Shown here one piece after another: positions 1 through 59,166 of a stretch of DNA of 64,000 nucleotides. How positions within the stretch are numbered: position 1 is the first letter of the stretch; each line of letters begins with the position of its first letter. A program made the translations under genes and the position numbers. The stretch comes from Burkholderiales bacterium (lineage in GTDB: Bacteria; Pseudomonadota; Gammaproteobacteria; Burkholderiales; Burkholderiaceae_C): positions 221-64,220 of the forward strand of contig CANFXR010000003.1 in the NCBI GenBank assembly GCA_947451035.1. The letters run 5' to 3'. The notes under the pieces are model-generated. The model made no database searches, was not told the origin of the DNA, and saw nothing but the letters and a program-made list of their open reading frames with translations.

Positions 1-2
1 GC

Positions 3-2612
3 TTGCTCGATGACGAAATGTGGCTGCACCGCCTGCGGCAGGCGAGCGCGCTCAGCGGCATCACGCTGGTGGCCGCGGGCGATGTGCACTTTCATGTGCG
101 CTCGCGCAAGCCGCTGCAAGACGTGCTCACCGCCACGCGCGTGGGCCGGCCGCTCACCGAATGCGGCCTGGCGCTGCAGCCCAACGCCGAGCGGCATTTG
201 CGCACCCGCGTGCGCCTGGCGCAGACCTACCCGGCCGAGCTGCTGGCTGAAACGCTGGTGGTGGCCGCGCGCTGCCGTTTCAGCCTGGCCGAGCTGCGCT
301 ACCAGTACCCCGACGAGGTGGTGCCCGCCGGCGAAACGCCCGGCTCGTACCTGCGCCGCCTCACGTTCGAGGGGGCAGGGCGGCGCTGGCCGCAGGGGGT
401 GCCGGCGGCGCTGCAGCTGCAAATCGAGCACGAGCTCGAACTGATCGGCGAGCTGCGCTACGAGCATTACTTTTTGACGGTGGCCGACATCGTCACCTTC
501 GCGCGCTCGCGCCACATCCTGTGCCAGGGGCGCGGCAGCGCGGCCAACAGCGTGGTGTGCTTTTGCATCGGCGTGACCGAGGTCGACCCGGCGCGCATGA
601 GCGTGCTGTTCGAGCGCTTCATCAGCCGCGAGCGCAACGAGCCGCCCGACATCGACATCGACTTCGAGCACGAGCGCCGCGAGGAGGTGCTGCAGTACCT
701 GTACGCCAAGTACGGCCGCGACCGCGCCGCGCTCACCGGTGTGGTCATCAGCTACCGGCCCAAGAGCGCGCTGCGCGACGTGGGCAAGGCGCTGGGCTTC
801 AGTGTGGCCACGCTCGACGCGGTGGCGCGCGAGCACTCGCGCTGGGACGGCTGCGAGGTGCGCGCCGAGCGGCTGGCCGACGCCGGCCTGTCGGCCGACG
901 ACCTGCAGGTGCAGCAGCTGCTCAAGCTCGCCGGCCAGCTGCTGGGTTTCCCGCGCCACCTCAGCCAGCACACCGGCGGCTTCGTGCTCACGCGCGGCTT
1001 GCTGTGCCGCATGGTGCCCATCGAAAACGCCGCCATGCCCGATCGCACCGTCATCGAATGGGACAAGGACGACCTCGACGCCATCGGTTTGCTCAAGGTC
1101 GACTGCCTCGCGCTGGGCATGCTCACGGCGCTGAGCAAATCGCTGCGCTTCATCGGCGAGCGTCTGGGCGGCGTGTTCGAGATGCAAGACATCCCGAGCG
1201 AAGACCCCGCCACCTACGACATGGTGTGCCGCGCCGACACCGTGGGCGTGTTCCAGATCGAAAGCCGCGCGCAGATGAGCATGCTGCCGCGCTTGAAGCC
1301 GCGCTGCTTCTACGACCTGGTGATCGAAGTGGCCATCGTGCGCCCCGGCCCCATCGTGGGCGGCATGGTGCATCCGTACCTGAACCGGCGCCAGGGCAAG
1401 GAGCCGGTCAGCTACCCGAGTGCCGCGCTCGAGCAGGCGCTGGGCCGCACGCTGGGCGTGCCGGTGTTTCAGGAGCAGGTGATGCAGATCTCGATCCTGG
1501 CCGCCGGCTTCACGCCGGGCGAGGCCGACGGCCTGCGCCGCGCCATGGCCGCCTGGAAGCGCAAGGGCGGGCTTGAGAAATACCACGCCAAGATCATCGA
1601 CGGCATGACCTCGCGCGGCTACGACGAGGCCTTTGCACGGGCCATCTTCGAGCAGATCAAGGGCTTTTCGGAGTACGGCTTTCCCGAGAGCCATGCGGCC
1701 TCGTTCGCCTTGCTGGTCTACGCCAGTTGCTGGATCAAGTGCCACCACCCGGCCGAGTTTCTGGCCGCGATGCTCAACTCGCAGCCGCTGGGTTTTTATT
1801 CGCCGTCGCAGCTGGTGCAAGACGCCCGGCGCCACGGCGTCGAGGTGCGCGCGGCCGATGTCATGCACAGCGATGTCGACTGCACGCTCGAAGGCCTGCC
1901 GCATCCGCCGGCGGTGCGCCTGGGCTTGCGGCTGATCGCCGGGCTGTCAGCCGAGGCGGCCGCGCGCATCGTGGCCGCCCGCGGCGAGCAGGTGTTCGAC
2001 AGCGCCGACGACCTGGCCCGCCGCGCCGATTTGCAGCACCACGAGATGAAACTGCTGGCTGCGGCCGATGCGCTGATGAGCCTGTCGGGCCACCGCCGCC
2101 AGCAGGTGTGGGAGGCAGCCGCCTGGCGCGCCGCGCCGCTGCTGCTGCGCGAGGCACCCATCGATGAAGACGTGCTCGAGCTGCCGAGCGCACCCGAGGG
2201 CGAAGAGATCGTCTTCGACTACGCCGCGCTGGGCCTGAGCCTGCGCCGCCATCCGCTGGCGCTGCTGCGGCCGCAGTTGCGCGCGCGCCGGCTGCTCAGC
2301 GCCGAACAGCTGGCCGCCGTGCCCCACGGCCGCGCGGTGCGCTGCTGCGGCATCGTCACCTTGCGCCAGCAGCCCGAAACCGCCAACGGCACCACCTTCG
2401 TGTCGCTCGAAGACGAAACCGGCGTCGTGCAGGTGATCTGCTGGAAGTCGCTGCGCGAGCGCCAGCGCAGCGTGCTGCTGCGATCGCGGCTGCTGGCCGT
2501 TCACGGCACCTGGCAGCGCGAGGGTGCGGTGTGCAACCTGATCGCCGCGCAGCTCGAAGACCTCACGCCGCTGCTCGGGCGGTTGATGACCGACAGCCGC
2601 GATTTCAAGTGA
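3..2612 (+). CDS. dnaE2: Error-prone DNA polymerase DnaE2 (Pol III alpha family), 5' end cut by window edge
   Basis: The frame is open from the left edge. Pol III alpha motifs are present (GRGSAANSVVCFCIGVTEVDP, PDIDIDFEH, VFQIESRAQM, LGFYSP). An OB-fold C-terminus ends in SRDFK with no long tau-binding tail, which fits DnaE2/ImuC. Confidence 0.85.
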   Translation: MLDDEMWLHRLRQASALSGITLVAAGDVHFHVRSRKPLQDVLTATRVGRPLTECGLALQPNAERHLRTRVRLAQTYPAELLAETLVVAARCRFSLAELRYQYPDEVVPAGETPGSYLRRLTFEGAGRRWPQGVPAALQLQIEHELELIGELRYEHYFLTVADIVTFARSRHILCQGRGSAANSVVCFCIGVTEVDPARMSVLFERFISRERNEPPDIDIDFEHERREEVLQYLYAKYGRDRAALTGVVISYRPKSALRDVGKALGFSVATLDAVAREHSRWDGCEVRAERLADAGLSADDLQVQQLLKLAGQLLGFPRHLSQHTGGFVLTRGLLCRMVPIENAAMPDRTVIEWDKDDLDAIGLLKVDCLALGMLTALSKSLRFIGERLGGVFEMQDIPSEDPATYDMVCRADTVGVFQIESRAQMSMLPRLKPRCFYDLVIEVAIVRPGPIVGGMVHPYLNRRQGKEPVSYPSAALEQALGRTLGVPVFQEQVMQISILAAGFTPGEADGLRRAMAAWKRKGGLEKYHAKIIDGMTSRGYDEAFARAIFEQIKGFSEYGFPESHAASFALLVYASCWIKCHHPAEFLAAMLNSQPLGFYSPSQLVQDARRHGVEVRAADVMHSDVDCTLEGLPHPPAVRLGLRLIAGLSAEAAARIVAARGEQVFDSADDLARRADLQHHEMKLLAAADALMSLSGHRRQQVWEAAAWRAAPLLLREAPIDEDVLELPSAPEGEEIVFDYAALGLSLRRHPLALLRPQLRARRLLSAEQLAAVPHGRAVRCCGIVTLRQQPETANGTTFVSLEDETGVVQVICWKSLRERQRSVLLRSRLLAVHGTWQREGAVCNLIAAQLEDLTPLLGRLMTDSRDFK

Positions 2613-2967
2613 ATCCCGGCGAGCGCACCGCCTGAGCGAGCTGCTTTCGGGCCACGTGGGACGCCGCAGCCGCTGAACACGCCTTCAGACGGCCTTAAGG
2701 ATTGTTTCAGCAAGGGTTAACTCGTAACGACTTGCAACCAGGTGCTGCGGGATGCGCACCACACCATCGACGGACCCAGAGCCCGTTCCGGACCACGGTG
2801 CAAGCAAGCCTCCCCGGGGGCGCGGCGACGTGGCTGGGTGCTGCCGGCGTTGATCAACAGCAACGCGAAGGCATCTTCTTCAACTCACCCTCTCGAAATC
2901 GCACGTGCAAATCCCACGAACGCCCGGATACATCTGCACACCGCAAGACCCTGCGAGCGTCCAGACA

Positions 2968-3438
2968 ATGGGTTTGCCGACTCTTGATTTACTTCTTTTC
3001 GTCACCAAGACCATGCGTTTGCCTCACCTGTCACCTGCCAAATCCGACCCCAGCGCACGCCTGCTGTGGAGCGGCGTGTGCCTGGGTGCGCTGGTCTGGC
3101 TGCTCGCCCGGCAGCCGCTCGCCATGCCGTCGTGGTCCACCGTGTGGCTGCTCGCCGGCGCGCCGGTCGTCGAAGAAGTGATCTTCCGGCTCGGGCTGCA
3201 ACAAGAGCTCCTGTCCCGTGTGCGCTCGGCCGCCGTGGCCAATGTCGCCACCGCCGTGGTCTTCGCGCTGGCGCATGGCCTGAGCCAAGGCACGGGGCTG
3301 TCGCTGCTCACGCTGCTGCCGGCGCTGGTCATCGGTTCGATCTTCCAGCGCTCGCGCCATGTGGCGCCTTGCATCGCGCTGCACGCCGCTTTCAACGCCA
3401 TCTGGCTTGTCTTGCCCTCCACCCTCTTTTCAAGTTGA
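2968..3438 (+). CDS. CPBP-family (CAAX-type) glutamic intramembrane protease, small Mrt-like form
   Basis: Multi-TM protein with the CPBP signature motifs EEVIFR, FALAHG and HAAFN. The start is ambiguous (ATG 2968 or ATG 3013, neither with a clear SD). The stop lies 7 nt before the next gene. Confidence 0.7.
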   Translation: MGLPTLDLLLFVTKTMRLPHLSPAKSDPSARLLWSGVCLGALVWLLARQPLAMPSWSTVWLLAGAPVVEEVIFRLGLQQELLSRVRSAAVANVATAVVFALAHGLSQGTGLSLLTLLPALVIGSIFQRSRHVAPCIALHAAFNAIWLVLPSTLFSS

Positions 3439-3445
3439 GATCTCC

Positions 3446-6400
3446 ATGAACACTGCCCTACACACCTCGAAGTTCAAGGCCTGGAAGCAGCTGGTGGCCG
3501 TGGCCTGCGTCGGCATGCTCACGTCGATGTCCGCGCATGCCGACAACCCGGTCGCTGGTGCCACGCTCTACGCCAGCAACTGTTCGGGCTGCCACGGCGG
3601 TGCGCCGCTGACGAGCAATGGGTCCAAGATCTACAACGCGCGCAACGCGCGCCTCTGGATCCAGAGCAACATCAACAGCAACAACAGCGGCATGGGCTCG
3701 CTGCGCACCATGACCGTGCAGCAGGTCGCCGATGTGGCGGCCTACCTCGGCAACTCGCCTTCGAGCTTGACCTTCGCGTCGACCAACGTCGGCGTCACCG
3801 CGGCCACGCAGACGGTCACCGTCAAGGCCAGCCTGACGAACGCCACCTACGCGCTCAGCGCCCTGACAGTGAGCACCAGCGGCGACTTCGCGCGCTCGGG
3901 CGGCACTTGCGGCACGACCCTGGCCACAGGCCCCACCGGTTGCACGGTGATCGTGTCGTTCACGCCCACGGCAGCGGGCGCGCGCACCGGCACGCTGAGC
4001 ATTGGCCATTCCGGCACGATCACGCCGATCGCCATTGCGCTGAGCGGCACCGGCGCAGGCACCCCGGCGCCAGCCCCCGTGGCGTCCATCACACCGACTT
4101 CGCTGACGCTGGCGACCACCGCCATCGGCAACACCAGCGCGGCGCAAAGCGTGACCGTGAGCAACACGGGCAACGCAGCGCTCTCGCTGTCGGCGATCAC
4201 GCTGTCCAACCCGGCTGACTACATCATCAGCGGCGGCACCTGTGCTGCGCCTGGCAGCGTGGCCGCTGCCGGGAACTGCACCATCTCGGTGGCGTTCAAG
4301 CCGTCGGCGGGTGCCACCGGCGCTCGCAGCGGCACGTTGAGCATCACCCACAACGCCGCGGGCAGCCCCGGCAGCGTGACGCTCACCGGCAGCGCCACTG
4401 CGGCGCCGGCCCCGGTGGCCGCGCTGGCGCCCGTCTCGCTGTCGTACGGCAGCCTCAACGTGGGCACTGCGGCCTCGGCACAGACCGTCACGCTGTCGAA
4501 CACCGGCAACGCCGCATTGACCCTGGGCACGCTGTCGATCAGCAGCGGCACCGAGTTCTCCATCAGCGGCGGCACCTGCACGGCGGGCGGCACGGTCGCC
4601 GCTGCCGCCAGTTGCACCATCAGCGTGGGCTTCACGCCGTCGGCGGCAGGCGCACGCACCGCCAACCTGGTCGTCACGCACAACGCGGCCGGCGCATCCA
4701 GCACCACCAGCCTGTCGGGCACCGGCGTGGCGCTGACGCCGGTGATCGGCGTGTCGCCCACCACGCTGAGCTTCACGCAGACGATTTCCACGACATCGGC
4801 AGCCCAAACCGTGACCGTGAGCAACAGCGGCACCGGGCCGCTGACCCTCAGCGCCCTGACGCTCAGCGGCACCGCCTCGGCTGACTACACCCGCGGCGGC
4901 ACCTGCACGCCCAGCACGGTGGTGGCGGCTGGCGCCAACTGCACGGTGACGTTCACCTTCACGCCGGGCGCGGTGGGTGCCCGCACGGCCAGCCTGGCGA
5001 TCACGCACAACGCTGCCGGCTCGCCGTCAGCGGTCACGCTCAACGGCACCAGCACGGCCGCGCCGACGCCGGCCATCTCGCTCAACGCGACGACGCGCAC
5101 CTTCACGTCGCAAGTGGTGGCCACCACCAGCGCCAGCCAATCGGTGACGGTCAGCAACAGCGGCACCGCTGCCCTGACGTTCAACGCACTGACGCTCGCG
5201 GGCAGCGCCTCGGGTGACTTCACCCGCGGTGGCACCTGCACGCCCACCACGGTGCTGGCCGCTGCCGGCACTTGCACGGTGACCTTCACCTTCACGCCGG
5301 GCGCAGTGGGTCCACGCAGCGCCACGCTGACGCTCTCGTCTGATGCCAGCAACGGTGCTGCGGCGATCAGCCTCGCCGGCACCGGCGCGGCCGCTCCGGC
5401 GCCTGCCGTCTCGCTGTTGCCAGGCTCGCTGGCCTTTGGCAACCAGACCGACAGCGTGACCTCCACCGCACGCACCGTCACCTTGTCGAACCCCGGCTCT
5501 GCCGCGCTGAGCATCTCGGGCATCACCGCCACCTCGGGCTATGCGGTGACCCACAACTGCGGCGCCAGCCTGGCTGCGGCGGCGAGTTGCACCCTGTCGG
5601 TGACCTTCACCCCGGCCGGCCAGGGCGCTGCGCCTGGCAGCGTGTCGGTGGCCTCGAATGCGGCCGGCTCGCCGCACTCGGTGAGCCTCACCGGCACCGG
5701 CGTGGCCGCATCGCCGGTGCTGGCCTGGGTGGGGAGCACCACCACGCTGGCGTTTGGCAACCTGACCGTCGGTTCGGCCGCCACCACGCAGACCCTCAGC
5801 CTGATCAACAACGGCCCCGGTGCCGTGACGCTGTCGGGCTTCACGTTCGCTGGCGCGAATTCGGCTGACTACTCCGTCAGCGGTGGCACCTGCGCGCTGA
5901 GTTCGCTGGCGCAAGGTGCGAGCTGCACGCTCACGCTGTCGTTCGGACCCGGCGCGGTCGGTGCACGCAGCGCCACGCTGCAGGTCACCTCGACCGGAAC
6001 CAACCCGCCGGACGTGGCGCTCAGCGGCACTGGCACCGCACCGGCGCAGCCTGCGGCCGTGCTGTCGCCCCCGGTGCTGAGCTTCAGCGCGCTGCCGGGT
6101 GCCGCCGCCACGGATCAGACGCTGACGCTGCAAAGCTCCGGCAATGCCGTGTTGACGGTCACCGGGCTGCGCATCGCCTCGGGCTCGTTCACGCTGGCAC
6201 CGGCCGCGACCAACGGCTGCGGCACGCCGCCGTTCGACTTGATGCCAGGACAGAGTTGCACGGTGGTGGTGGGCTTGTCCGGCAAGGTAACCGCCTTGCA
6301 GGCCGGCAGCGTGTCCAGCACGCAGTCCGGTGTGCTCGAGATCGACACCAGCGCTTCCGTGTCGCCGCTGCAGGTGCCGGTCCAGGTCGTCGTGCTTGAC

Positions 6401-6553
6401 GTGGCCGCGACGCCTGTGCCCTCGGTCAGCAGCAATTCCGGCGGTGGCGGCGGCTGCTCGATCGCCCGCGGCAACACGCTGCTCGACCCGACGCTGTGGC
6501 TGCTCACGCTCGTTGCCGCCGGCGTGCTGTGGTACCGCCGCGCCCGCCGCTGA
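3446..6553 (+). CDS. Secreted monoheme cytochrome-c domain protein with eight choice-of-anchor-D/Ig-like repeats and a Cys-containing C-terminal sorting signal (1035 aa)
   Basis: ATG at 3446. Signal peptide ending MSAHA. CSGCH heme motif at nt 3581-3595. Eight repeats of about 105 aa, each with a GGTC...C-T-I/V cysteine pair. The tail reads GGGGGCS, then a hydrophobic helix, then RRARR. Confidence 0.8.
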   Translation: MNTALHTSKFKAWKQLVAVACVGMLTSMSAHADNPVAGATLYASNCSGCHGGAPLTSNGSKIYNARNARLWIQSNINSNNSGMGSLRTMTVQQVADVAAYLGNSPSSLTFASTNVGVTAATQTVTVKASLTNATYALSALTVSTSGDFARSGGTCGTTLATGPTGCTVIVSFTPTAAGARTGTLSIGHSGTITPIAIALSGTGAGTPAPAPVASITPTSLTLATTAIGNTSAAQSVTVSNTGNAALSLSAITLSNPADYIISGGTCAAPGSVAAAGNCTISVAFKPSAGATGARSGTLSITHNAAGSPGSVTLTGSATAAPAPVAALAPVSLSYGSLNVGTAASAQTVTLSNTGNAALTLGTLSISSGTEFSISGGTCTAGGTVAAAASCTISVGFTPSAAGARTANLVVTHNAAGASSTTSLSGTGVALTPVIGVSPTTLSFTQTISTTSAAQTVTVSNSGTGPLTLSALTLSGTASADYTRGGTCTPSTVVAAGANCTVTFTFTPGAVGARTASLAITHNAAGSPSAVTLNGTSTAAPTPAISLNATTRTFTSQVVATTSASQSVTVSNSGTAALTFNALTLAGSASGDFTRGGTCTPTTVLAAAGTCTVTFTFTPGAVGPRSATLTLSSDASNGAAAISLAGTGAAAPAPAVSLLPGSLAFGNQTDSVTSTARTVTLSNPGSAALSISGITATSGYAVTHNCGASLAAAASCTLSVTFTPAGQGAAPGSVSVASNAAGSPHSVSLTGTGVAASPVLAWVGSTTTLAFGNLTVGSAATTQTLSLINNGPGAVTLSGFTFAGANSADYSVSGGTCALSSLAQGASCTLTLSFGPGAVGARSATLQVTSTGTNPPDVALSGTGTAPAQPAAVLSPPVLSFSALPGAAATDQTLTLQSSGNAVLTVTGLRIASGSFTLAPAATNGCGTPPFDLMPGQSCTVVVGLSGKVTALQAGSVSSTQSGVLEIDTSASVSPLQVPVQVVVLDVAATPVPSVSSNSGGGGGCSIARGNTLLDPTLWLLTLVAAGVLWYRRARR
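3760..6400 (+). repeat. Eight tandem, diverged coding repeats of about 315 nt inside the cytochrome-c/Ig-repeat gene
   Basis: A recurring peptide pattern (S-L-x-F/L-G...V-G...Q-T/S-V-T-V/L-S-N-x-G...L...G-G-T-C...C-T-V/I-x-V/F-x-F-x-P...G-A-R-x-x-T/A-L...) was counted eight times by eye. Boundaries are approximate. Confidence 0.6.
6440..6550 (+). other. Putative C-terminal sorting signal (Gly-rich/Cys motif, TM helix, Arg cluster)
   Basis: The last 37 codons read GGGGGCSIARGNTLLDPTLWLLTLVAAGVLWYRRARR. Confidence 0.6.
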
Positions 6554-6632
6554 TGAGCCACCGCCACTCACAGCCACACACTGAACCTCACGCTTGATCC
6601 TTTTTGCCGACGAGACACTTTTGGAGCCCACC

Positions 6633-7142
6633 ATGAACAACACATCCCTGACCCGCGCGCTGCGCCTGACCGCGCTGTGCCTGGCCACCCTGGCCGCCCC
6701 GGCGGCCTGGTCGCTCGAGGCCGGTGCGGCCGCGCCTGAACTGAGCCTGCCCGGCCTGAAGGACGCGGTGTCGCTGGCCCAGATGAAGGGCAAGGTCGTC
6801 TACGTCGACTTCTGGGCCTCGTGGTGCGGCCCGTGCAAGCAGTCGTTTCCGTTCATGAACGAGCTCAAGGCCAAGTACGGCGCGCAAGGCTTCGAGGTGC
6901 TGGCGGTCAATCTCGACGCCAAGCGCGGCGACGCCGACAAGTTCCTCGCCGAGGTGCCCGCGCAGTTCACGGTGGCCTTCGACACCAGCGGCGAGAGCGC
7001 CAAGCGCTTCGAGGTCAAGGGCATGCCGTCGTCGTACCTGGTCGGCCGCGACGGCAAGATTGCTTCGGCGCACAAGGGCTTTCGAGAGCAAGATCGCAAG
7101 GAACTCGAGTCGCGCATCGTCCAGGTGCTGGGCGCCCCGTGA
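6633..7142 (+). CDS. TlpA-like periplasmic thiol:disulfide oxidoreductase (thioredoxin fold)
   Basis: Signal peptide (MNNTSLTRALRLTALCLATLAAPAAWS). WCGPC active site within FWASWCGPC. Redoxin-type length. Confidence 0.85.
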   Translation: MNNTSLTRALRLTALCLATLAAPAAWSLEAGAAAPELSLPGLKDAVSLAQMKGKVVYVDFWASWCGPCKQSFPFMNELKAKYGAQGFEVLAVNLDAKRGDADKFLAEVPAQFTVAFDTSGESAKRFEVKGMPSSYLVGRDGKIASAHKGFREQDRKELESRIVQVLGAP

Positions 7143-7180
7143 CATCGCTGCACCTTCCACCCCTTGCCGAGGATCCCGTG

Positions 7181-7417
7181 ATGCCCCATACCCCCCGACG
7201 TTCTTTGCGCGTGTTGAGCGCGCTGCTGGCCGCCAGCGCCCTGGGCGGCTGCGCCATGGCGCCCCCGCAACCCTGGGAGCGCGGCAACCTGGCCCGCCCC
7301 GAGATGACGATGGGCGGTGATCCGCTGGACCAGCGCTTCGTCCAGCACATCTACGGCAGCAAGGAAAACGCCTCGGGTGGCTACGGCGTCGGTGGAGGTG
7401 GCTGTGGCTGCAACTGA
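7181..7417 (+). CDS. DUF4266-like small lipoprotein ending in GGGGCGCN
   Basis: Lipobox LGGC after a short signal peptide. 78 aa. C-terminal Cys-Gly-Cys at nt 7403-7411. It sits in the recurrent TlpA/DUF4266/DUF3570/ApbE neighbourhood; the family call is from memory. Confidence 0.65.
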   Translation: MPHTPRRSLRVLSALLAASALGGCAMAPPQPWERGNLARPEMTMGGDPLDQRFVQHIYGSKENASGGYGVGGGGCGCN

Positions 7418-7427
7418 CCCCAAATCC

Positions 7428-8576
7428 ATGAAGACCGCCCGCAACGAAAAGGCCGGAGCGATCATCGCCGCCGCGCTGGCGCTGCCCGGCGTGATGGCCC
7501 CCGGCCTGGCGCGCGCCGATTCGGCGCCCGAGCACGGCGAGATCGCCCTGAAGTACCTGCACTACGACGATTCGCAGCCCGGCCTGTCGCGCATCAAGGT
7601 GAACGCGCCGTCCCTTTACGTGATGGTGCCGCTGTCGCCCAAGTGGTCGGTCGAGGGCTCGCTGGTGTCCGACAGCGTGTCGGGTGCCACGCCGCGCTAC
7701 CACTCGGCGATCTCCGGTGCGACCAAGCACATGAAGGACCAGCGCAAGGCGCAAGACGTCAAGGTCACGCGCTACGAGGAGCGCTCGAGCTACTCGTTCG
7801 GCGTGAGCCACTCCAAGGAGCACGACTACGAGAGCACCGCGGGCTCGCTCGATGCCAGTTTTTCCAGCGACGACAACAACCGCACCTGGAACGTGGGCGT
7901 GGGCTTTTCCGACGACAAGATCGGTTCGCACAACAACGCCGCGCTGCACAAGACCAAGCAGACCGTCGAGCTGATGGCCGGTGTGACGCAGGCCTGGACG
8001 GCCAACGATCTGGTGCAGTTCAACGTGTCGCACAACCGCGGCCACGGCTACTACTCCGACCCCTACAAGGATCCGGACGTGCGGCCCGACTATCGCAACC
8101 AGTCGATTCTGCTCACGCGCTGGAACCACCATTTCGACGGGATGCACTCGACGCTCAAGACCAGTTATCGCTACTACCGCGACAACTTCGGCATCAAGGC
8201 GCACACGCTGGGCCTGGACTGGGTGCAGCCGCTGGGCGACAAGTTCACGGTGACGCCGTCGCTGCGCTACTACACGCAAACCGCGGCCAAGTTCTATTAC
8301 GACCCGGTGTACGACCCGGACGTGGGTGCGCCCTATCCCGTGGGCTACTTCGACAACCCGCCGAAGTACATCTCCGCCGACCAGCGCTTGTCGTCCTTCG
8401 GCGCCATCACGGTGGGCCTGAAGGTGGCCATGAAGGTGACGGCGGACTGGACGGTCGATGCGAAGGTCGAACGCTACGAGCAGCGCTCCGACTGGCGGCT
8501 GGGCGGGCGCGCTTCGCCGGGGCTGGATCCGTTTCGGGCGACCTTCTTCCAGTTCGGCGTGAGCAGGCGCTTCTGA
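7428..8576 (+). CDS. DUF3570-like predicted outer-membrane beta-barrel protein
   Basis: Signal peptide (..GLARA/DS). Alternating Tyr/Gly-rich beta-strand pattern. Terminal ..FGVSRRF with a C-terminal Phe typical of OMPs. Contains DSVSGAT and SAISGAT (nt 7671-7724). Confidence 0.65.
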   Translation: MKTARNEKAGAIIAAALALPGVMAPGLARADSAPEHGEIALKYLHYDDSQPGLSRIKVNAPSLYVMVPLSPKWSVEGSLVSDSVSGATPRYHSAISGATKHMKDQRKAQDVKVTRYEERSSYSFGVSHSKEHDYESTAGSLDASFSSDDNNRTWNVGVGFSDDKIGSHNNAALHKTKQTVELMAGVTQAWTANDLVQFNVSHNRGHGYYSDPYKDPDVRPDYRNQSILLTRWNHHFDGMHSTLKTSYRYYRDNFGIKAHTLGLDWVQPLGDKFTVTPSLRYYTQTAAKFYYDPVYDPDVGAPYPVGYFDNPPKYISADQRLSSFGAITVGLKVAMKVTADWTVDAKVERYEQRSDWRLGGRASPGLDPFRATFFQFGVSRRF

Positions 8577-8579
8577 GCC

Positions 8580-9572
8580 ATGCGCGCCGCCGTGTCACCC
8601 CTTCGAAAGCGCGCCAAGGGTGCGCCGTCGAAGGCGCACGCCTATCGCTTCGAGTTCGATGCGATGTCCAGCGTGTGCGAGATCCGTCTCGACGACGCAC
8701 GCGGTGAAGGCGAGCCGGTGCTGGCGCTGGCGGCCGAACAGGCCATCAGCGAGGTGCGTCGCATCGAGGTGGCGTTTTCGCGCTACCGCGCCGACAGCAT
8801 CGTGTCGCGCATCAACGCGGCAGCGGGCGGGCCTGACGTGGTGGGGGTGGACGACGAGACCGCCTCGCTGCTGAACTTTGCGGCGCAGCTGCATGCGTTC
8901 AGCGACGGGCTGTTCGACATCACCTCCGGCGTGCTGCGCCGGGTCTGGGATTTCAAGGCGCAGCGCGTTCCTGATGAGGCGGCGCTGCAGCAGGTGCTGC
9001 CACTGATCGGCTGGTCGCAGGTGGAGTGGACGGGTCAGACGATCCGGCTGCCGCGGGCGGGCATGGAGGTCGACTTCGGCGGCTTCGGCAAGGAATACGC
9101 CGCCGACCGCGCGATGGCGGTGCTGCACGCCACCGGCCAGCGCCACGGCTACGTGAACCTGGGTGGCGACATCCGGGTGCTCGGGCCGCGTGCCGACGGC
9201 AGCGCGTGGCGCTTCGGCATCCAGCACCCGCGCCACGACGAGGGCACGATCGCCAGCGTCGAGTTGCGCGAGGGCGCGCTGGCCACCAGCGGCGACTACG
9301 AGCGTTACTTCGAGCAGGCGGGCCGGCGCTATTGCCACATCCTCGATCCACACACCGGCTGGCCGGTGACCCACTGGGCCAGCGTCAGTGTGACGGCACC
9401 GGCTTGCGTGGCGGCCGGCGCGCTCACCACGATCGCCATGCTCAAGGGCGCCTCGGCGCCCGAATTTCTCGCTGCCCAGGCCGCCACCGGCCTGGTCGTC
9501 GATACCGCGATGCGCAGCACGCGCATCGGCGCCGAGCACGACCGGCGCATCACCCAAGGAGAACAAGAATGA
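8580..9572 (+). CDS. apbE: FAD:protein FMN transferase (ApbE family)
   Basis: ApbE-type motifs are present (FSRYRADSIVSRIN, GLFDITSG, VDFGGFGKEYAADRA, NLGGDIRV, ATSGDYERYF, HILDP). No recognisable signal peptide or lipobox. Confidence 0.85.
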   Translation: MRAAVSPLRKRAKGAPSKAHAYRFEFDAMSSVCEIRLDDARGEGEPVLALAAEQAISEVRRIEVAFSRYRADSIVSRINAAAGGPDVVGVDDETASLLNFAAQLHAFSDGLFDITSGVLRRVWDFKAQRVPDEAALQQVLPLIGWSQVEWTGQTIRLPRAGMEVDFGGFGKEYAADRAMAVLHATGQRHGYVNLGGDIRVLGPRADGSAWRFGIQHPRHDEGTIASVELREGALATSGDYERYFEQAGRRYCHILDPHTGWPVTHWASVSVTAPACVAAGALTTIAMLKGASAPEFLAAQAATGLVVDTAMRSTRIGAEHDRRITQGEQE

Positions 9573-11419
9573 ACCTTCCACGATGGGCCCAGTGCCTGAG
9601 CGTGACCGCGGCCGCGCTGCTGTTCGCAGCCGTGTCGGGCGCCCCGGCGCTGGCCGGCGAGCCCGACTTTCTGGACCCGGCGCAGGCCTTCGTGGGCAGC
9701 GCCCGTGTGGGCAACGCGAAGACCGTGGAGCTGCGCATCGACGTCGCGCCGGAGTACCACCTCTACCGCGATCGCATCAGCGTCGAGGCCGAAGGGGCCG
9801 GTGCCACGCTGGGCGAAGTGGCCATTCCTGCGGGCAAGGTCGAGTTCGACACGAACTTCAACAAGAACGTCGAGGTGCTGCACGGCGCGTTGCTGATCCG
9901 CGTGCCGGTGCAGCCCACGGGCCGTGACTTCCGCTTGCGCGTGGTCTACCAGGGCTGCGCCGACAAGGGGCTGTGCTACCCGCCGCAAACCGCCTTCGTG
10001 AATGCCGACGCGCGCGACGGCCAGCTGCTGCGCGCGCAGTGGCAAGGCGAGGACGCCGCACCGGTCACCGTCTCGGACGTGGCTGTCGTGGTCGCGCCAG
10101 CGGTCGATGCCGCACCGGTGTCGCAAACCGCGAAGGTCGAGTCGGCACTCAAGTCGGGCAGCTTGCTCACCATCGCCGGCGTGTTTCTGGTGGCCGGCTT
10201 GCTGCTCGCCTTCACGCCTTGCGTGCTGCCGATGGTGCCCATCCTGTCTTCGATCATCGTGGGGCAGGGCGCACCGGTTTCGCGCACACGGGGCTTTGCG
10301 ATGGCGCTGGCCTATTCGCTGGGCATGGCGCTGGTCTACACCGCGTTCGGTGTGGTCGCCGGTCTGCTCGGCGAGGGGCTGGCCGCGGCGCTGCAAAACC
10401 CCTGGGTGCTGGGTGCTTTCGCGCTGATGCTGGCCACGCTGTCGCTGTCGATGTTCGGCGTGTTCGAGCTCCAAATGCCCAGCTTCATCCAAAGCCGCAT
10501 CACCGAGAGCTCGAGCCGTCTGCCCGGCGGCAAGTTCATGGGCGTGTTCGTCATGGGTGGCTTGTCGGCGCTGATCGTGGGCCCGTGCGTGGCCGCGCCG
10601 CTGGCCGGTGCACTGGTGTTCATCAGCCAGACGCGCGACGTCGTCATCGGCGGGCTGGCGCTGTTCAGTCTGGCCATGGGCATGAGCGTGCCGCTGCTGC
10701 TGGTGGGCGTGTCGGCGGGCTCGCTGCTGCCGCGCGCCGGCAGCTGGATGGAAGGCGTCAAGACCTTCTTCGGCGTGATGCTGTTGGGGGTGGCGCTGTG
10801 GATCGTCTCGCCGGTGCTGCCGGTGTGGGTGGTGATGTTGATCATCGGCAGCGGCTTGCTGGTCGCTGCGATCTACCTCAAGCTGTTTGACCGGCTGGCC
10901 GACACCGCTTCGGGCCGCCAGCGACTGGCCAAGGGCGCCGCGCTGGTGCTCGCCGTGCTGGGCGCCACGCAGGTGGTGGGCGCGCTGTCGGGCGGTGACA
11001 ACCCGCTGCAGCCGCTGGGGCATTTCGCTCGCGGCCCGAGCGCGGGTCCGGCCGCAACGCAGGCCACCAGCTTTCGGCGCATCCGCACCGTGGCCGAACT
11101 CGAGGCCGCGCTGAAGGTGACCGACCGTCCCGTGATGCTCGACTTCTATGCCGACTGGTGCGTGTCGTGCAAGGAAATGGAACACCTGACCTTCAGCCAT
11201 CCGACGGTGCAGCCTCGCATGGCCAACGCGCTGCTGCTGCAAGCCGACGTGACCGACAACTCGGCCGACGCCAAGGCGCTGCTCAAGCGCTTCGGGCTGT
11301 TCGGCCCGCCGGGCGTGCTGTTCTTCGACAAGCATGGCCGCGAGCAGGCCAACGCCCGCGTGGTCGGCTTCGTGCCGGCGCTGGGGTTTATCGCGTCGCT
11401 GGGGGCGGTCGGGCTGTAA
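9569..11419 (+). CDS. dsbD: Thiol:disulfide interchange protein DsbD
   Basis: The ATG overlaps the apbE stop (ATGA). Signal peptide and N-terminal DsbD-alpha domain (YQGCADKGLCYPP). Central multi-TM domain with CVLP and GPCVAAP. C-terminal thioredoxin domain with WCVSCK. Confidence 0.9.
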   Translation: MNLPRWAQCLSVTAAALLFAAVSGAPALAGEPDFLDPAQAFVGSARVGNAKTVELRIDVAPEYHLYRDRISVEAEGAGATLGEVAIPAGKVEFDTNFNKNVEVLHGALLIRVPVQPTGRDFRLRVVYQGCADKGLCYPPQTAFVNADARDGQLLRAQWQGEDAAPVTVSDVAVVVAPAVDAAPVSQTAKVESALKSGSLLTIAGVFLVAGLLLAFTPCVLPMVPILSSIIVGQGAPVSRTRGFAMALAYSLGMALVYTAFGVVAGLLGEGLAAALQNPWVLGAFALMLATLSLSMFGVFELQMPSFIQSRITESSSRLPGGKFMGVFVMGGLSALIVGPCVAAPLAGALVFISQTRDVVIGGLALFSLAMGMSVPLLLVGVSAGSLLPRAGSWMEGVKTFFGVMLLGVALWIVSPVLPVWVVMLIIGSGLLVAAIYLKLFDRLADTASGRQRLAKGAALVLAVLGATQVVGALSGGDNPLQPLGHFARGPSAGPAATQATSFRRIRTVAELEAALKVTDRPVMLDFYADWCVSCKEMEHLTFSHPTVQPRMANALLLQADVTDNSADAKALLKRFGLFGPPGVLFFDKHGREQANARVVGFVPALGFIASLGAVGL

Positions 11420-11470
11420 CGCACGGATTTCGCCTGTCACAGGGCGCGGCCACAATCAGTTCCCGGTCGT

Positions 11471-11511
11471 GATGGCCTGCAAGGTTCTGCCTTGCAGGCC
11501 ATCGTGATTTT
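11471..11511 (+). terminator. Rho-independent terminator after dsbD
   Basis: Perfect 14-bp stem (gatggcctgcaagg / ccttgcaggccatc), a 5-nt loop, then gtgatttt. Confidence 0.8.
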
Positions 11512-11543
11512 CGGGCCCGCCATTCACTCTGCGCAGTACACAG

Positions 11544-12440
11544 ATGAGCATCTCCGCCACCTCGAACTCCCATGAACGCGGCTTGCAGGTGGCCGTGGCC
11601 TTCTGCCTGCTCGATGTGTGCCTGACGGGGGGCGCGGCGTTTGCCTCGACCTCGCTCACCATCATGAGCGACCTGCTCAAGGAGTCGACTGACTTCCTGG
11701 CCGTGCTGGCGGCGTACCTCACGGTGCGCGCGGTGCGTCGCGCACCCGACGAGCGCTACGGCTACGGCATCGGCAAGCTCGAGAACCTGGTCAGCATGGC
11801 CATCGCCGTGGCGATGGTGGCGTGCGCGGGGTTCATCCTGATACAGGCGTCGCATCACCTGCGCGATCCGCAGCCCACCGAAGGCACGCTGCCCGGCATC
11901 GTGATCTTCTCGACCTATGCGGCGATCGGTTTCGGCATCTCGTTGCGCAACCGGCTCGAGCTGCGCAAGCGCGAGTCGGCGATCCTCGAATCACAGGCCC
12001 AGCTGTGGTTTTCCAAGGCGTGCTTCGACGCGCTGATGGCGCTCACGCTGATCACGCAGGTGGTGTGCCACGGGCAGCGCTGGAGCTTGTATCTGGATCC
12101 GATCGCGTCGCTGCTCGGCGTATTTTTCCTGCTGCACGCGGCCTGGGCGATCACCAGTTCATCGGTGGGTGACCTGCTCGATGCCAGCCTGTCCGAGCAC
12201 CTCCAGTTGCGCATCCTGCGCCAGCTGGTCGAGCGCTTCGACGACTACGACCGGCTGCACAAGATCCGCACCCGGCGCTCCGGGCCTCACGTGTACGTCG
12301 AAGTCTTTTTGCAGTTCGACCCCGCGCTGCTGATGCGCGAAGTGCAAAACCGCATCAACGCGATTGCCGCCCAGATCACCCGCGAGATTCCCGGCACGCA
12401 GGTGGTCATCGTGCCGTCGTGCGAGGCCCCTGCGGACTGA
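11544..12440 (+). CDS. Cation diffusion facilitator (CDF) family transporter
   Basis: Six-TM N-terminal part with CDF-like TM1/TM2 (ASTSLTIMSDLLKESTDF) and a cytoplasmic C-terminal domain (YVEVFLQFDP...). Confidence 0.75.
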   Translation: MSISATSNSHERGLQVAVAFCLLDVCLTGGAAFASTSLTIMSDLLKESTDFLAVLAAYLTVRAVRRAPDERYGYGIGKLENLVSMAIAVAMVACAGFILIQASHHLRDPQPTEGTLPGIVIFSTYAAIGFGISLRNRLELRKRESAILESQAQLWFSKACFDALMALTLITQVVCHGQRWSLYLDPIASLLGVFFLLHAAWAITSSSVGDLLDASLSEHLQLRILRQLVERFDDYDRLHKIRTRRSGPHVYVEVFLQFDPALLMREVQNRINAIAAQITREIPGTQVVIVPSCEAPAD

Positions 12441-12473
12441 GGGCGCACGCCGCCCGGGCCGGCCGCTGAACGA

Positions 12474-12689
12474 TCAGGGCGGGTCCGCGAGCAGCGACAT
12501 CACCAGCGTGTGGTAAGCCTCCCGCTCGGCCGTGGAACGTTGCTCGGGCGTGAGTTTCTCGCCGGCCAGGATGCGGCGCGACACCTGGGCCTGTGCGTCG
12601 CGCATGGCCTGCTGCTGGAGTTCTTGCGGGATGCGCCGGGCCTTGGCGGTCAGGCCATTGAGGGCGGTGGGAACGCTGTTGATGCCCAT
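12474..12689 (-). CDS. Hypothetical small protein (71 aa)
   Basis: ATG-started ORF in an otherwise empty gap downstream of the OlsB-like gene. Only a weak SD and no recognisable motifs. Confidence 0.3.
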   Translation of the reverse strand: MGINSVPTALNGLTAKARRIPQELQQQAMRDAQAQVSRRILAGEKLTPEQRSTAEREAYHTLVMSLLADPP

Positions 12690-19395: not shown

Positions 19396-19520
19396 AAACA
19401 GCCCACTGCACCCAATAGAATTTTCGGGAGACCTTGGAAACCTGAGGTCGTTGCATCCAGCCGCGATGATGGCGCGCCACGGGTGTGGGTCGTTGCCGGT
19501 TATCGAGCCGAGGCGCGGTG

Positions 19521-20402
19521 ATGATCAAGCCGATGGACAACGAAAAGCTGGCACGCGCCGCAGTCTGGGTGTCGGCGTCCGCGGTGATGTGGTGTCTGGC
19601 TGCAGCCATCGCCAGCACGTCGCTGACATTGATCGCCGATGTGGTGAACGCCTCGCTGGATCTGGCCGCCTGTGTGCTGGCTTATGTGACGTTGCGGCTG
19701 CAGCGGGGCACCTATCGCGCCTTGCTTGATTACGGCGTGGGCAAGCTTGAGGCCATCGCTTCGCTTTTCATCGGCTTGCTGGCTGGCGGCGGTGCGGCAT
19801 TTGTTCTGTACGAGGCTTTTCGCGCGCTGGTCAATCCGCAGCCCGTGTCTGGCGGCGGCATTGTCTGGGGCCTCATCGGGTGCTGGGTGATCAGCGGGCT
19901 TTGCGGGCGTTTGTGGTGGCAGTTCAAGCGGCAGCTTTCGCATGGCGATTCGCCGATAACAGCCGCCCAAATGCACATACACCTCATCAGCTGCTGGACG
20001 TCGCTCGGGGTTTCGGTGCCACTGGCGTGTTCGCTGGTCTTCAACGCCGGCTGGGTGCGTTACCTGGATGTCACGATTTCTGTGGCGCTGGGTCTGTTTG
20101 CGGCCCACGTGGGCTGGGGCATGGTTCGCCACTCGTTGGGCAACATGGTCGATCAGTCCCTGGACGAACCTTTGCAGGTCATCATCAACCGACACCTGGT
20201 CGAGCATTTCGAGACTTACGGAATGTTCGAAAAGGTTCGATCGCGCACCTGTGGCACCGACATCTTTATCGAGATATTTCTGAACTTCCAGCCGCACACG
20301 TCCATCGGCGACATTCAGGTGGTGTTCGATGCCATCAAAGGTGGCATCGAAAGCGACATCCACAAATCGCACGTGACCATGATCGCGGCTGCCGTGAAAT
20401 AG
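19521..20402 (+). CDS. Second CDF-family transporter (paralog of 11544..12440), lower GC
   Basis: Same architecture as the first CDF (ASTSLTLIADVVNASLDL, C-terminal IFIEIFLNFQP). The codon third positions are visibly richer in A/T than in its neighbours. Confidence 0.7.
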   Translation: MIKPMDNEKLARAAVWVSASAVMWCLAAAIASTSLTLIADVVNASLDLAACVLAYVTLRLQRGTYRALLDYGVGKLEAIASLFIGLLAGGGAAFVLYEAFRALVNPQPVSGGGIVWGLIGCWVISGLCGRLWWQFKRQLSHGDSPITAAQMHIHLISCWTSLGVSVPLACSLVFNAGWVRYLDVTISVALGLFAAHVGWGMVRHSLGNMVDQSLDEPLQVIINRHLVEHFETYGMFEKVRSRTCGTDIFIEIFLNFQPHTSIGDIQVVFDAIKGGIESDIHKSHVTMIAAAVK

Positions 20403-53683: not shown

Positions 53684-55192
53684 ATGAGTCTCTTCTCGCT
53701 GCTCGACCACACGGCTACACGCTTCCCCGATCACGGCGCGGTTTTCCGCGGGCTTGAGCAGGTTCTCTCCTGGCGAGAACTGAAGGCTCGGGCGCTGGGG
53801 TTGGGCGCAGGAATACGCACCAGGTGTCGCCCTGGCGATCGCGTGGCGCTCGTCAGTGAGAACCGCACCGAATATGTCGAGCTGATGTTCTCGGCATGGG
53901 CCGCCGAGGCCGTCACCGTGCCGGTCAACTACAAACTGCACGACAAGGAGGTGTCCCAGATCCTGGAGGACGCTGAGGTGTCGCTGGTCTTCGTGTCGCC
54001 GAAGCTGCTCGCCGGGTTGCCCCGCACGGTAGCGACTTATGGTGACAGGATGGTGGTCATCGGCGACGCCGCTTACGAACAAATGGTGTCTGGCGAGCCG
54101 ATTGCCGTTCCGTCGGCCGAGCCGGAAGCCTTGGCGTGGCTGTTCTACACGAGCGGAACCACCGGCCGATCAAAGGGCGCCATGCTGTCCCATCGCAACC
54201 TGATGGCGGCGACCATCGCCCACTTGGCCGACATCGAGTCGCTCGATGAGTGGTGTAGCCAATTGCATGTGGCGCCCATGTCGCACGGTTCAGGCATGTA
54301 CATGCTGCCGTCGATCGCGCGCGGCGCGCGGCAGGTCGTTCCAGCCTCCGGCGCCTTCGAGCCTGTGGAATTCCTCGAACTTTGCGACCAGCATCCGGCG
54401 TGCGGGGCCTTCTTGGCCCCGACCATGATCCAGCGCTTGCGGATCGCGGTCGAAGAAGGCAAGCGAAGCCGGCCGAAGCATCTGCGCAACATCGTTTACG
54501 GTGGCGGGCCGATGTACGTCGAGGAGCTGAGAAAGTCGACCACTGTGCTGGGCCCGGTGTTCTCGCAGATCTACGGCCAAGGCGAAGCCCCGGTCACCAT
54601 CACCGGAATGAATCAGGCTGCGCACGTCACCGATGACGATGCCATCCTGGGCTCTGTCGGTTGGCCCCGAAGCGGCACCGAGGTTCGGGTGACCGACTCG
54701 GATGGCAAGGACTTGCCGGCTGGCTCGATCGGCGAAATCCTGTGCCGCGGTGATGTGGTGATGGCGGGGTATTGGCGAAACCCCTCGGCAACTGCCGAGA
54801 CGCTGCGCGGTGGGTGGCTCCATACGGGTGACATGGGTTCGTTCGATGAGCGTGGCTGCCTGACGCTGAGAGACCGTTCCAAGGACGTCGTGATCAGCGG
54901 AGGCAGCAACATTTACCCCCGTGAAGTGGAGGAGGTACTGCTATTGCATCCAGCCGTCGCAAAGACCAGCGTTGTGGGGCGTCCTGACAACGAATGGGGC
55001 GAGGTGCTCATTGCCTTTGTGGTCCGGGAGGCGGGGGCCGAGGTCAGCACCGCCGAGCTTGATGCGCATTGCCTTGAACACATCGCACGCTTCAAGCGGC
55101 CGAAGGAATATAAATTCCTCGATGAGTTACCAACCAGCAGTTATGGCAAGGTTCTCAAGAGCGAGTTGAGAAAGCTTTTGGAAAACACCTGA
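53684..55192 (+). CDS. AMP-dependent acyl-CoA synthetase/ligase
   Basis: AMP-binding motifs YTSGTTGRSKGA, GEIL.RG and GWLHTGD, with a C-terminal K in SSYGKVLK. Confidence 0.85.
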   Translation: MSLFSLLDHTATRFPDHGAVFRGLEQVLSWRELKARALGLGAGIRTRCRPGDRVALVSENRTEYVELMFSAWAAEAVTVPVNYKLHDKEVSQILEDAEVSLVFVSPKLLAGLPRTVATYGDRMVVIGDAAYEQMVSGEPIAVPSAEPEALAWLFYTSGTTGRSKGAMLSHRNLMAATIAHLADIESLDEWCSQLHVAPMSHGSGMYMLPSIARGARQVVPASGAFEPVEFLELCDQHPACGAFLAPTMIQRLRIAVEEGKRSRPKHLRNIVYGGGPMYVEELRKSTTVLGPVFSQIYGQGEAPVTITGMNQAAHVTDDDAILGSVGWPRSGTEVRVTDSDGKDLPAGSIGEILCRGDVVMAGYWRNPSATAETLRGGWLHTGDMGSFDERGCLTLRDRSKDVVISGGSNIYPREVEEVLLLHPAVAKTSVVGRPDNEWGEVLIAFVVREAGAEVSTAELDAHCLEHIARFKRPKEYKFLDELPTSSYGKVLKSELRKLLENT

Positions 55193-55223
55193 CCGATAAT
55201 TTTTTAAAAACTGGAGAAAACCG

Positions 55224-56393: not shown

Positions 56394-56793
56394 CCGACGA
56401 CCCATTCTGGCGGGCTGCTCATGGCGAGAACGCGACTCATCTCCAAGCGAGTCCGAGGCATCCCGAAGTCGCACTTGCGTGTCCGGTGCGTCCAGATTGC
56501 GGACGGGCTGGTCTGTTGTGACGGGGGTGCTCGGGTTCATTTCGTCTGAATTCCGAACACTTTGGTCGATTTCTACGGGGGATTCCCTCGGTAACGTTTG
56601 CCCGTTTGGGACGTACAGTCCGACTTCGCTCTGGCGCACATGGCCCAATCGGGCCACATCGCGAGTTCACCGATTGCCCGTGGCTCGAATTGGAGGAGTT
56701 CGCAGATTGTTTCTGCGTTCGCCGGTAGCGAGTCGAACTTGAAACTGCCAGCTTCGGCAACTAAAGGCACACACCCCAGAGGCGAGCAAGCAA

Positions 56794-58836: not shown

Positions 58837-59166
58837 GTGCCAGACTTGAATCTTTCGCATCATGCTGAGTTGATGGCGCTGAGATCGCCCTACGGCAATC
58901 CGTAAATTTGCGGCACAAAGGCGCGGCACTCCTGGCGCGGGTGTAACGTGCCCCGCGCTCTGCACTTTCGGTGCGCCGAATGTCACAGGTTCGAAGGGTG
59001 CAATCGAGCCCAAGTCGGGTTCAAATCTTGCTCTACTTTCGAAAACAAAGTCAGTTCTCGGGATCTGCCTGGGTTCAATGAGCGCAGCCTGCCACCACCA
59101 ACGGTGGGGCCCTGTGAATTGGCCTGAGAATTTCTCTATTCAATATATAAATCCATTTTTAATAAC

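Follow-up and report, generated by a model that had tools for sequence, protein, structure and literature searches.

Gene clusters that combine ApbE, DUF3570, a thioredoxin-like protein, and DUF4266, with or without DsbD, were described as "DsbD systems" by Méheust, Huang, Rivera-Lugo, Banfield, and Light in 2021 (eLife 10:e66878), and a further 316 clusters lacked DsbD nearby. In that study, the DUF3570 protein of Chlorobium luteolum was flavinylated by its cognate ApbE upon coexpression in E. coli, and loss of the flavin signal required mutation of both [S/T]GA[S/T] sites. The authors proposed a hybrid thioredoxin/flavin system fed by DsbD (their Fig. 4D) and stated that its function was uncertain. 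Haft (2023, bioRxiv 10.1101/2023.06.07.544157) reported a few species with JDVT-CTERM proteins encoded beside DUF4266, DUF3570, and TlpA genes and suggested that these neighbors work with the mature sorted protein. Here, we analyze a cluster of this kind, tlpA-DUF4266-DUF3570-apbE-dsbD, located at positions 6633 to 11419 of a window of 64,000 nucleotides (nt) from a Burkholderiales bacterium (assembly GCA_947451035.1, contig CANFXR010000003.1, positions 221 to 64,220 of the forward strand); all coordinates below are those of the window.

Judged by its sequence, the window cluster belongs to the DsbD-linked DUF3570 flavinylation system already in the literature, to which it adds a sorted cytochrome c protein. 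We assign it there because it matches the system component by component and carries both flavinylation motifs: we found an exported DUF3570 with two motifs, an apbE gene, a DUF4266 with a CXC motif, a thioredoxin-like protein, and DsbD. The five open reading frames (ORFs) all lie on the plus strand, with successive gaps of 38, 10, and 3 nt and an ATGA overlap between the apbE stop and the dsbD start, as a first-pass annotation of this DNA had described. Searches with Pfam and NCBIfam profiles placed all five products above the curated cutoffs, and the features listed at first pass (a WCGPC site, a lipoprotein, a barrel ending in Phe, ApbE, and DsbD) are all present in the translations. By analogy with the C. 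luteolum protein in E. coli, covalent flavin mononucleotide (FMN) is predicted on the window DUF3570. Taking the locus as a whole, we favor, with modest confidence, a reading in which this published system is flavinylated in the cytoplasm and conducts electrons outward along a path from thiol to flavin to heme.

The first-pass annotation had also proposed that a thiol arm and a flavinylation arm converge on the lipoprotein/barrel pair. This idea fits the two barrel motifs, the invariant CXC, and the conserved synteny, and it coincides with the published model (Méheust 2021, Fig. 4D). The accompanying statement that neither DUF family has an assigned function has to be given up for DUF3570, an ApbE substrate by experiment since 2021. 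The window cluster shares with the system of Méheust et al. the five families, the two DUF3570 motifs, the C-terminal CXC, and a thiol/flavin path fed by DsbD. It differs in the thioredoxin-like component, which belongs to PF13899 in the paper, whereas the separate protein of the window is of the Redoxin/TlpA type and the only match to PF13899 is the DsbD gamma domain. It differs further in three features that the paper does not mention: a barrel or outer-membrane nature of DUF3570, a leaderless ApbE, and a cytochrome c partner.

To follow the cluster beyond the window, we used two sets of loci. The genome set comprised 80 loci, all from Burkholderiales (Roseateles/Mitsuaria, Ideonella, Rhizobacter, Duganella, Undibacterium, and many metagenome-assembled genomes), the closest at 91% identity; the metagenome set comprised 80 loci that were seeded with distant family members (6-sequence alignment) and had a guanine-plus-cytosine (GC) content of 0.38 to 0.71. 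Neighbors were counted when they lay on the same strand beside DUF3570, and only on contigs reaching far enough. In the genome and metagenome sets, respectively, tlpA was adjacent in 72/73 and 58/60 loci, DUF4266 in 75/76 and 68/71, apbE in 66/75 and 45/53, and dsbD in 48/63 and 14/35. Since the partner genes adjoin DUF3570 on the same strand across 160 loci, the arrangement, as judged from gene order, is not a product of chance, and the synteny on which the first-pass proposal depended is borne out over the whole range of GC content. From the same counts, the core of the cluster is tlpA-DUF4266-DUF3570-apbE, and dsbD is a frequent but optional neighbor, in agreement with the 2021 paper. In one locus of low GC content (L081, positions 1 to 5242, GC 0.38), the core follows ORFs that resemble, by eye, genes for cytochrome c oxidase subunits I and III and heme O synthase, and a 317-residue lipoprotein-like ORF with two CXXCH motifs had no Pfam match.

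The DUF3570 protein (positions 7428 to 8576, plus strand) scored 214.5 bits against Pfam PF12094 (cutoff, 25). It begins with an N-terminal hydrophobic segment, KAGAIIAAALALPGV, taken as its signal peptide, contains no cysteine, and ends in Phe; a C-terminal aromatic residue was present in 149 of the 151 complete relatives. The two flavinylation motifs are SGAT at residues 85 to 88 and SGAT at residues 96 to 99. Their S, G, and A residues were invariant at both sites in 34 relatives with 64 to 87% identity; at 28 to 39% identity, the first site was still invariant and the second was absent from a subgroup. Among 156 related DUF3570 proteins, 140 carried two motifs, 14 carried one, and 2 carried none. 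In two metagenome loci (L159 and L160), both motifs were degenerate (SGPS and SSAS), no apbE was adjacent, and dsbD lay upstream on the opposite strand, so that these proteins resemble natural flavinless variants of DUF3570. The loci without motifs also lack an adjacent apbE, as would be expected of a motif and an enzyme that belong together. In eight other loci (L058, L068, L070, L072, L073, and L078, from Undibacterium and one unclassified genome, as well as L155 and L156), both motifs were present, dsbD directly followed DUF3570, and no apbE was found nearby; since the motifs are kept there, an ApbE encoded elsewhere must serve such clusters.

An AlphaFold2 model of DUF3570, built on 107 sequences, showed 16 strands (predicted local distance difference test score [pLDDT], 84.9; predicted template modeling score, 0.82). 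A Foldseek comparison of the model with the PDB returned the BcsC, PelB, PgaA, OmpG, and FadL barrels with E values from 8e-10 to 4e-07 and template modeling scores of about 0.5. The connections between strands fall into two alternating sets; those of one set span 3 to 5 residues, and the long loops (L2, 10 residues; L4, 9; L5, 14; L7, 39; and L8, 15) all belong to the other set. By sequence and model, DUF3570 is predicted to be a Sec-exported outer-membrane barrel of 16 strands. Both flavin sites flank L2, at the tip of the beta3-L2-beta4 hairpin. In outer-membrane barrels, both termini and the short turns usually face the periplasm. Loop lengths combined with this rule would place both flavin sites on the outward-facing side of the modeled barrel. 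Family-invariant residues are concentrated in L2, L5 (DPYK..D.RP), and L7, which is unusual for outer-membrane proteins and suggests that these three loops build the cofactor site. The literature that we searched did not mention a barrel or an outer-membrane location for DUF3570: the word "barrel" does not occur in the 2021 paper (eLife 10:e66878), which uses "outer membrane" only for TonB receptors, and a 2024 follow-up omits DUF3570.

Immediately downstream, apbE (positions 8580 to 9572, plus strand) encodes an FAD (flavin adenine dinucleotide):protein FMN transferase of a leaderless type that is predicted to be cytoplasmic. The protein scored 263.9 bits against the Pfam ApbE profile and matched PDB entries 1vrm (E = 9e-41) and 5mgy (E = 2e-34), with the motifs GG..K.YA, TSGDYERYF, and H.LDP.TG conserved. 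Its N terminus, MRAAVSPLRKRAKGAPSKAHAYRFEFDA, has no hydrophobic core, the ApbE domain starts at residue 29, and the protein aligns with the start of the mature chains in the ApbE crystal structures, the alignment setting in at about residue 28 to 50. Neither the signal peptide nor the lipobox of an extracytoplasmic, lipoprotein-type ApbE was found. We compared the five products in the same loci by the maximum 11-residue hydropathy of their N-terminal regions: the median was 0.81 for ApbE (n = 122), against 2.31 for DUF3570 (n = 77), 2.35 for TlpA (n = 121), 2.45 for DsbD (n = 76), and 2.51 for DUF4266 (n = 144). Five ApbE values reached 2.0 or more, and by their sequences they seem to stem from read-through translation at the 3' end of DUF3570 or from the domain's first strand. 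No leader or signal peptide was found on the cluster ApbE in the 122 loci examined. In every locus examined, the apbE ORF starts a few residues before the first conserved strand, and in loci of low GC content, stop codons bound apbE so tightly that there is no room for a leader. By its sequence, this ApbE is not an extracytoplasmic enzyme, and the first-pass reading needs correction on this point.

Since the cognate ApbE lacks a signal peptide while its DUF3570 substrate is exported, the precursor of DUF3570 probably receives its FMN in the cytoplasm, while still unfolded and not yet exported. Such an order of events is consistent with the 2021 experiment: constructs without a leader received their flavin in the cytoplasm of E. 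coli, and DUF3570 was located in inclusion bodies (Méheust 2021, eLife 10:e66878). The missing leader of DUF3570-linked ApbE was not mentioned in the literature that we searched. A leaderless cytosolic ApbE is known from Klebsiella pneumoniae, where it serves a cytosolic fumarate reductase (PMC12052999); it resembles the window enzyme in having no signal peptide and differs in that its substrate stays in the cytosol, whereas the substrate here is exported. Alternatively, ApbE could reach the periplasm by an unrecognized route, or another, exported ApbE could act, so that DUF3570 would be flavinylated in transit to the beta-barrel assembly machinery (BAM). In favor of this alternative, all extracytoplasmic ApbE substrates characterized so far acquire the modification outside the cytoplasm, a cytosolic variant of ApbE did not complement in Salmonella (reviewed in PMC12052999), and some clusters without apbE keep both motifs, which means that their ApbE is encoded elsewhere. 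We nevertheless regard a periplasmic reaction as unlikely, given that 122 cluster-linked ApbEs have no leader while their four partners in the same loci do, that active leaderless cytosolic ApbEs such as the Klebsiella enzyme exist (PMC12052999), and that the cognate pair worked in the E. coli cytoplasm (eLife 10:e66878).

The thiol arm of the cluster consists of TlpA, DUF4266, and DsbD. TlpA (positions 6633 to 7142, plus strand) is a periplasmic protein of thioredoxin fold that resembles TlpA/ResA; it has a signal peptide, and its active site is WCGPC (FWASWCGPCK). Pfam Redoxin matched it with 83.6 bits (E = 1.6e-23), AhpC-TSA and Thioredoxin_8 also matched, and its closest NCBIfam models were ResA, DsbE, and TlpA, each of which scored under its equivalog cutoff. 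The small lipoprotein DUF4266 (positions 7181 to 7417, plus strand; Pfam PF14086, 78 bits) has the lipobox LGGC followed by Ala at position +2, and Ala or Ser at this position suggests, from sequence, sorting of the lipoprotein to the outer membrane. Its C terminus, GGGGCGCN, belongs to a glycine-rich tail of about 20 residues, and the last residues are CGCN; in 77/77 DUF4266 orthologs of the genome loci, the protein likewise ended in GVGGGGCGCN with its CXC motif. DsbD (positions 9569 to 11419, plus strand) is full length, with a signal peptide and the alpha, membrane beta, and gamma thioredoxin domains (Pfam DsbD_N, DsbD_TM at 315 bits, and Thioredoxin_7; NCBIfam NF001419 at 563 bits, cutoff 330). 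All three of its cysteine pairs are visible, in GCADKGLCYPP, in FTPCVLPM together with GPCVAAPL, and in WCVSCK. The DsbD-TlpA/CcmG/ResA pathways likewise join a DsbD with three cysteine pairs to a periplasmic CXXC client of thioredoxin fold; the partner here differs, being a CXC lipoprotein and a flavinylated barrel rather than an apocytochrome, ScoI, or CoxB.

Two further genes precede tlpA on the same strand. The first, mrtJ (positions 2968 to 3438), encodes a CPBP/Rce1-type intramembrane protease of JDVT-CTERM sorting (NCBIfam NF033192, 79 bits, cutoff 75; Pfam Rce1-like, E = 2e-16); its start is uncertain and may be the ATG at 2968 or that at 3013. Seven nucleotides separate it from the second gene (positions 3446 to 6553), whose secreted product of 1,035 residues has a signal peptide, a monoheme cytochrome c domain with a single CXXCH (CSGCH; Pfam Cytochrome_CBB3, 30 bits, cutoff 27), 8 choice-of-anchor D/ASH immunoglobulin (Ig)-like repeats (NCBIfam choice_anch_D, 480 bits), and a JDVT-CTERM signal (NF033191, 41.5 bits, cutoff 27; GGGGGCSIARGNTLLDP...RRARR). 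The C-terminal tail, GGGGGCSIARGNTLLDPTLWLL...RRARR, has the single Cys, the DP motif in a helix, and the Arg cluster of the sorting signal, and MrtJ is encoded next to it, as in the JDVT-CTERM/MrtJ systems found beside DUF4266, DUF3570, and TlpA (Haft 2023). Two points set the window apart from those systems: the nature of the sorted protein was left unstated there, whereas here it is a cytochrome c/Ig-repeat protein, and the cytochrome domain remains linked to the cluster in loci that have another C-terminal end in place of the sorting signal.

Of 61 genome loci, at least 47 had an ORF with C(X2-4)CH immediately upstream of tlpA, and this ORF carried a JDVT-like tail in 36 of them; tblastn detected relatives of the cytochrome c protein in several further genome loci. 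In the metagenome loci with enough flanking sequence, a cytochrome c-motif gene was present in 27/36, either upstream or divergently downstream. The C-terminal ends of these neighbors vary among JDVT-CTERM, Cys-less tails, and a DUF5648 domain. Judging from these sequences, what remains constant is the cytochrome c domain with its Ig-like repeats, and the means of anchoring differs between loci. No mention of a recurrent cytochrome c partner of DUF3570 clusters was found in the literature searched. The first-pass annotation had suggested that the interval from 2968 to 11419 may be one locus; this view gains support from the scores of MrtJ and JDVT-CTERM above their cutoffs, from the absence of a separating hairpin, from the recurrence of the cytochrome c-motif ORF upstream of tlpA, and from the occurrence of the same neighborhood in Haft 2023. 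The spacing of the heme motif varies: it is CSGCH in the window, and orthologs have CASCH, CQASCH (CX3CH), CATSGCH, CTGSGCH, or CGNSGCH (CX4CH), and CSNSNCH or CASSSCH. In three loci (L019, L023, and L026), a different protein of about 628 residues, with an N-terminal CXXCH and the end ...RQGF, is encoded upstream of tlpA and may be a cytochrome fused to another outer-membrane barrel. The ends of divergent cytochrome c proteins (e.g., EGYGVGVGWCAPQ) were considered as a DUF4266-like tail, an assignment that we rejected because Pfam shows a DUF5648 domain.

With these parts, the path that we favor would run as follows. With FAD at hand in the cytoplasm, ApbE would flavinylate the DUF3570 precursor there while it is still unfolded, and Sec and BAM would then export and assemble the flavinylated barrel. 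Electrons from reduced nicotinamide adenine dinucleotide phosphate (NADPH) and thioredoxin would cross the inner membrane via DsbD, which would reduce TlpA, and TlpA would in turn reduce the disulfide of the CXC motif in the flexible DUF4266 tail. The resulting dithiol would give two electrons to the barrel-bound FMNs, which the tail could reach. The flavins would turn this two-electron thiol chemistry into single-electron steps to the heme of the JDVT-anchored cytochrome c, and the cytochrome would pass the electrons to an extracellular acceptor. Most likely, the output of the path does not conserve energy but is reductive, such as the reduction of metals or a reaction with oxygen or oxidants; with NADPH/thioredoxin as the source of electrons, a function in assimilation or protection seems more probable than one in respiration.

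Several points weigh against this path. Its direction of electron flow and its final acceptor are guesswork. The neighborhood lacks dsbD in 15/63 genome loci and 21/35 metagenome loci, some clusters with both motifs (Undibacterium) have no apbE, and the cytochrome gene is not universal among the clusters. L2 (pLDDT of about 55) and L7 are the least confident regions of the DUF3570 model, and the sidedness of the loops was judged by their lengths and the usual rule, not from coordinates. To our knowledge, flavinylation before Sec export, or indeed covalent attachment of any cofactor before Sec export, has no precedent. Finally, a second, exported ApbE is possible elsewhere in the genome, of which the window spans 64 kb.

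A more specific version of the favored path, which we put forward tentatively and hold to be rather doubtful, makes DUF3570 itself a flavin-bearing conduit across the outer membrane. DsbD, TlpA, and then the CXC tail of DUF4266, extended into the barrel, would supply the electrons, a surface-tethered cytochrome c would receive them, and the FMN would have been attached by the leaderless ApbE before Sec export; metal or oxygen reduction at the cell surface is a possible output. If true, this arrangement would be a flavin counterpart of the porin-cytochrome conduits, with a covalent cofactor attached before Sec export. MtrAB/MtrCAB and the Cyc2 porin-cytochrome are its closest architectural analogs, as they too combine an outer-membrane barrel, a redox cofactor, and a lipoprotein or cytochrome partner. 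They differ in that no multiheme protein is present here, the barrel has 16 strands instead of the 26 of MtrB, the flavin sits on the barrel, and the electrons would come from thioredoxin and DsbD instead of the quinol pool. The hallmark of the MtrAB type, a multiheme cytochrome in a 26-strand barrel, was indeed lacking in the window, where the only cytochrome is monoheme and the barrel 16-stranded.

The closest working analogy for the order of redox steps is the mitochondrial disulfide relay, Mia40 (CPC)-Erv1/ALR (FAD)-cytochrome c. There, as proposed here, two electrons move from a short dithiol of the CXC type to a flavin, and the flavin delivers them singly to cytochrome c. The proteins are unrelated, and the relay uses noncovalent FAD on a soluble helical protein and makes disulfides, whereas covalent FMN would sit here on an outer-membrane barrel fed by the reductant DsbD. 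The resemblances to the Mia40 relay and to the porin-cytochrome systems are ones of function, by analogy, and not of family relationship.

The role of TlpA and DsbD may also be more modest than that of a steady electron source. They could act only in biogenesis and keep cysteines reduced during maturation, with the DUF4266 CXC, the cysteine of the JDVT sorting signal, and the heme-binding cysteines of cytochrome c as targets; the flavins would then trade electrons with some other periplasmic or extracellular partner. Such a role would suit the best NCBIfam models of TlpA (ResA, DsbE, and TlpA), which are cytochrome maturation reductases, although all scored below their cutoffs, as well as the CX3CH and CX4CH heme motifs of many cytochrome orthologs, which might need dedicated handling. 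It would also suit the position of the L081 cluster after a cytochrome oxidase operon and the frequent location of dsbD outside the cluster. Such a role is harder to square with the constancy of tlpA, which accompanies DUF4266 and DUF3570 in 72/73 and 58/60 loci and is retained in L096, L104, and L121, where no cytochrome c-motif gene was found nearby. Moreover, DUF3570 has no cysteine, so the conserved thiol partner is the CXC tail, whose invariance is expected of a catalytic motif. On these grounds we consider a role confined to biogenesis improbable, about as much so as a periplasmic ApbE, and keep to electron delivery through the CXC tail.

Bradyrhizobium TlpA reduces the copper chaperone ScoI and CoxB, which speaks for a third and weaker alternative. 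The module would handle metal, with CXC binding Cu(I) or another thiophilic metal, the barrel serving as a channel, the flavins reducing Fe(III) or Cu(II), and TlpA keeping the ligands reduced; the VIT1 ferrous iron transporter gene found in 25 such clusters (eLife 10:e66878) and a cation diffusion facilitator (CDF) efflux gene directly downstream in the window (positions 11544 to 12440) would fit, but Pfam and NCBIfam searches detected no metal-binding domain in the five proteins, and the CDF gene is kept only in L002 and L045 by tblastn and lies beyond the terminator hairpin, so that we deem this explanation quite unlikely, while noting that it concerns the output and partly overlaps the favored path.

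By itself, the window is one more example of a published, functionally unsolved system and changes little. Three features nonetheless make the system testable: an apparent outer-membrane flavin barrel with outward sites, an apparently cytoplasmic transferase, and a recurrent cytochrome c partner, the last of which suggests a path from dithiol to flavin to heme that leads out of the cell. The leaderless ApbE raises the questions of the time and place of cofactor attachment and of the ability of Sec to carry a flavinylated chain. If these features hold, bacteria would be able to export reducing power without quinones or multiheme proteins, and such a route could bear on metal reduction or oxidant chemistry at the cell surface.

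Concerning transcription, a hairpin followed by UUUU at positions 11462 to 11515 (plus strand) is likely an intrinsic terminator that closes the array, in line with the strong terminator noted after dsbD at first pass. It folds with -39.3 kcal/mol (z = -6.1), and 0/200 shuffled sequences folded as well; a simple terminator scan made no call there because the U run comprises only four residues. In the folding test, the 79-nt gap between the cytochrome gene and tlpA showed no structure beyond chance and hence no terminator, so that the seven genes from mrtJ through dsbD could, from sequence, form one transcript. A sigma-70 promoter scan of positions 2500 to 12600 found none, and no FMN riboswitch or other known RNA was found in positions 2400 to 12600.

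Some gene boundaries deserve comment. Many database models of DUF3570 begin with a conserved "MAATD/VAAT" extension, which corresponds to positions 7389 to 7430 of the window. This conservation belongs to DUF4266, because the extension is an alternate-frame reading of the invariant GCGC codons at the DUF4266 end; the true start of DUF3570 is ambiguous. We also considered a read-through fusion of DUF3570 and ApbE, given that the stop of DUF3570 and the ATG of apbE share a frame in the window, with one codon between them, and rejected it, as the two frames agree in only about half of the loci.

The CDF transporter gene at 11544 to 12440 was rejected as a part of the module because tblastn detected it after the hairpin in two loci only; a second CDF gene lies 7 kb further downstream, at 19470 to 20402. 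The downstream genes between 12790 and 23667 (acetyltransferase, phosphoesterase, phosphatidylserine decarboxylase, aminotransferase, glycosyltransferase, and others) were likewise set aside as unrelated. At the left end, a long ORF (positions 3 to 2612) runs off the window and resembles, by eye, the C-terminal part of a DnaE-type DNA polymerase III alpha subunit. At the other end, the GC content drops from about 0.68 to 0.53 to 0.60 over the last 10 kb (positions 54000 to 64000), and the AT skew rises to as much as +0.28 at 44 to 46 kb; these changes may mark foreign or unusual DNA.

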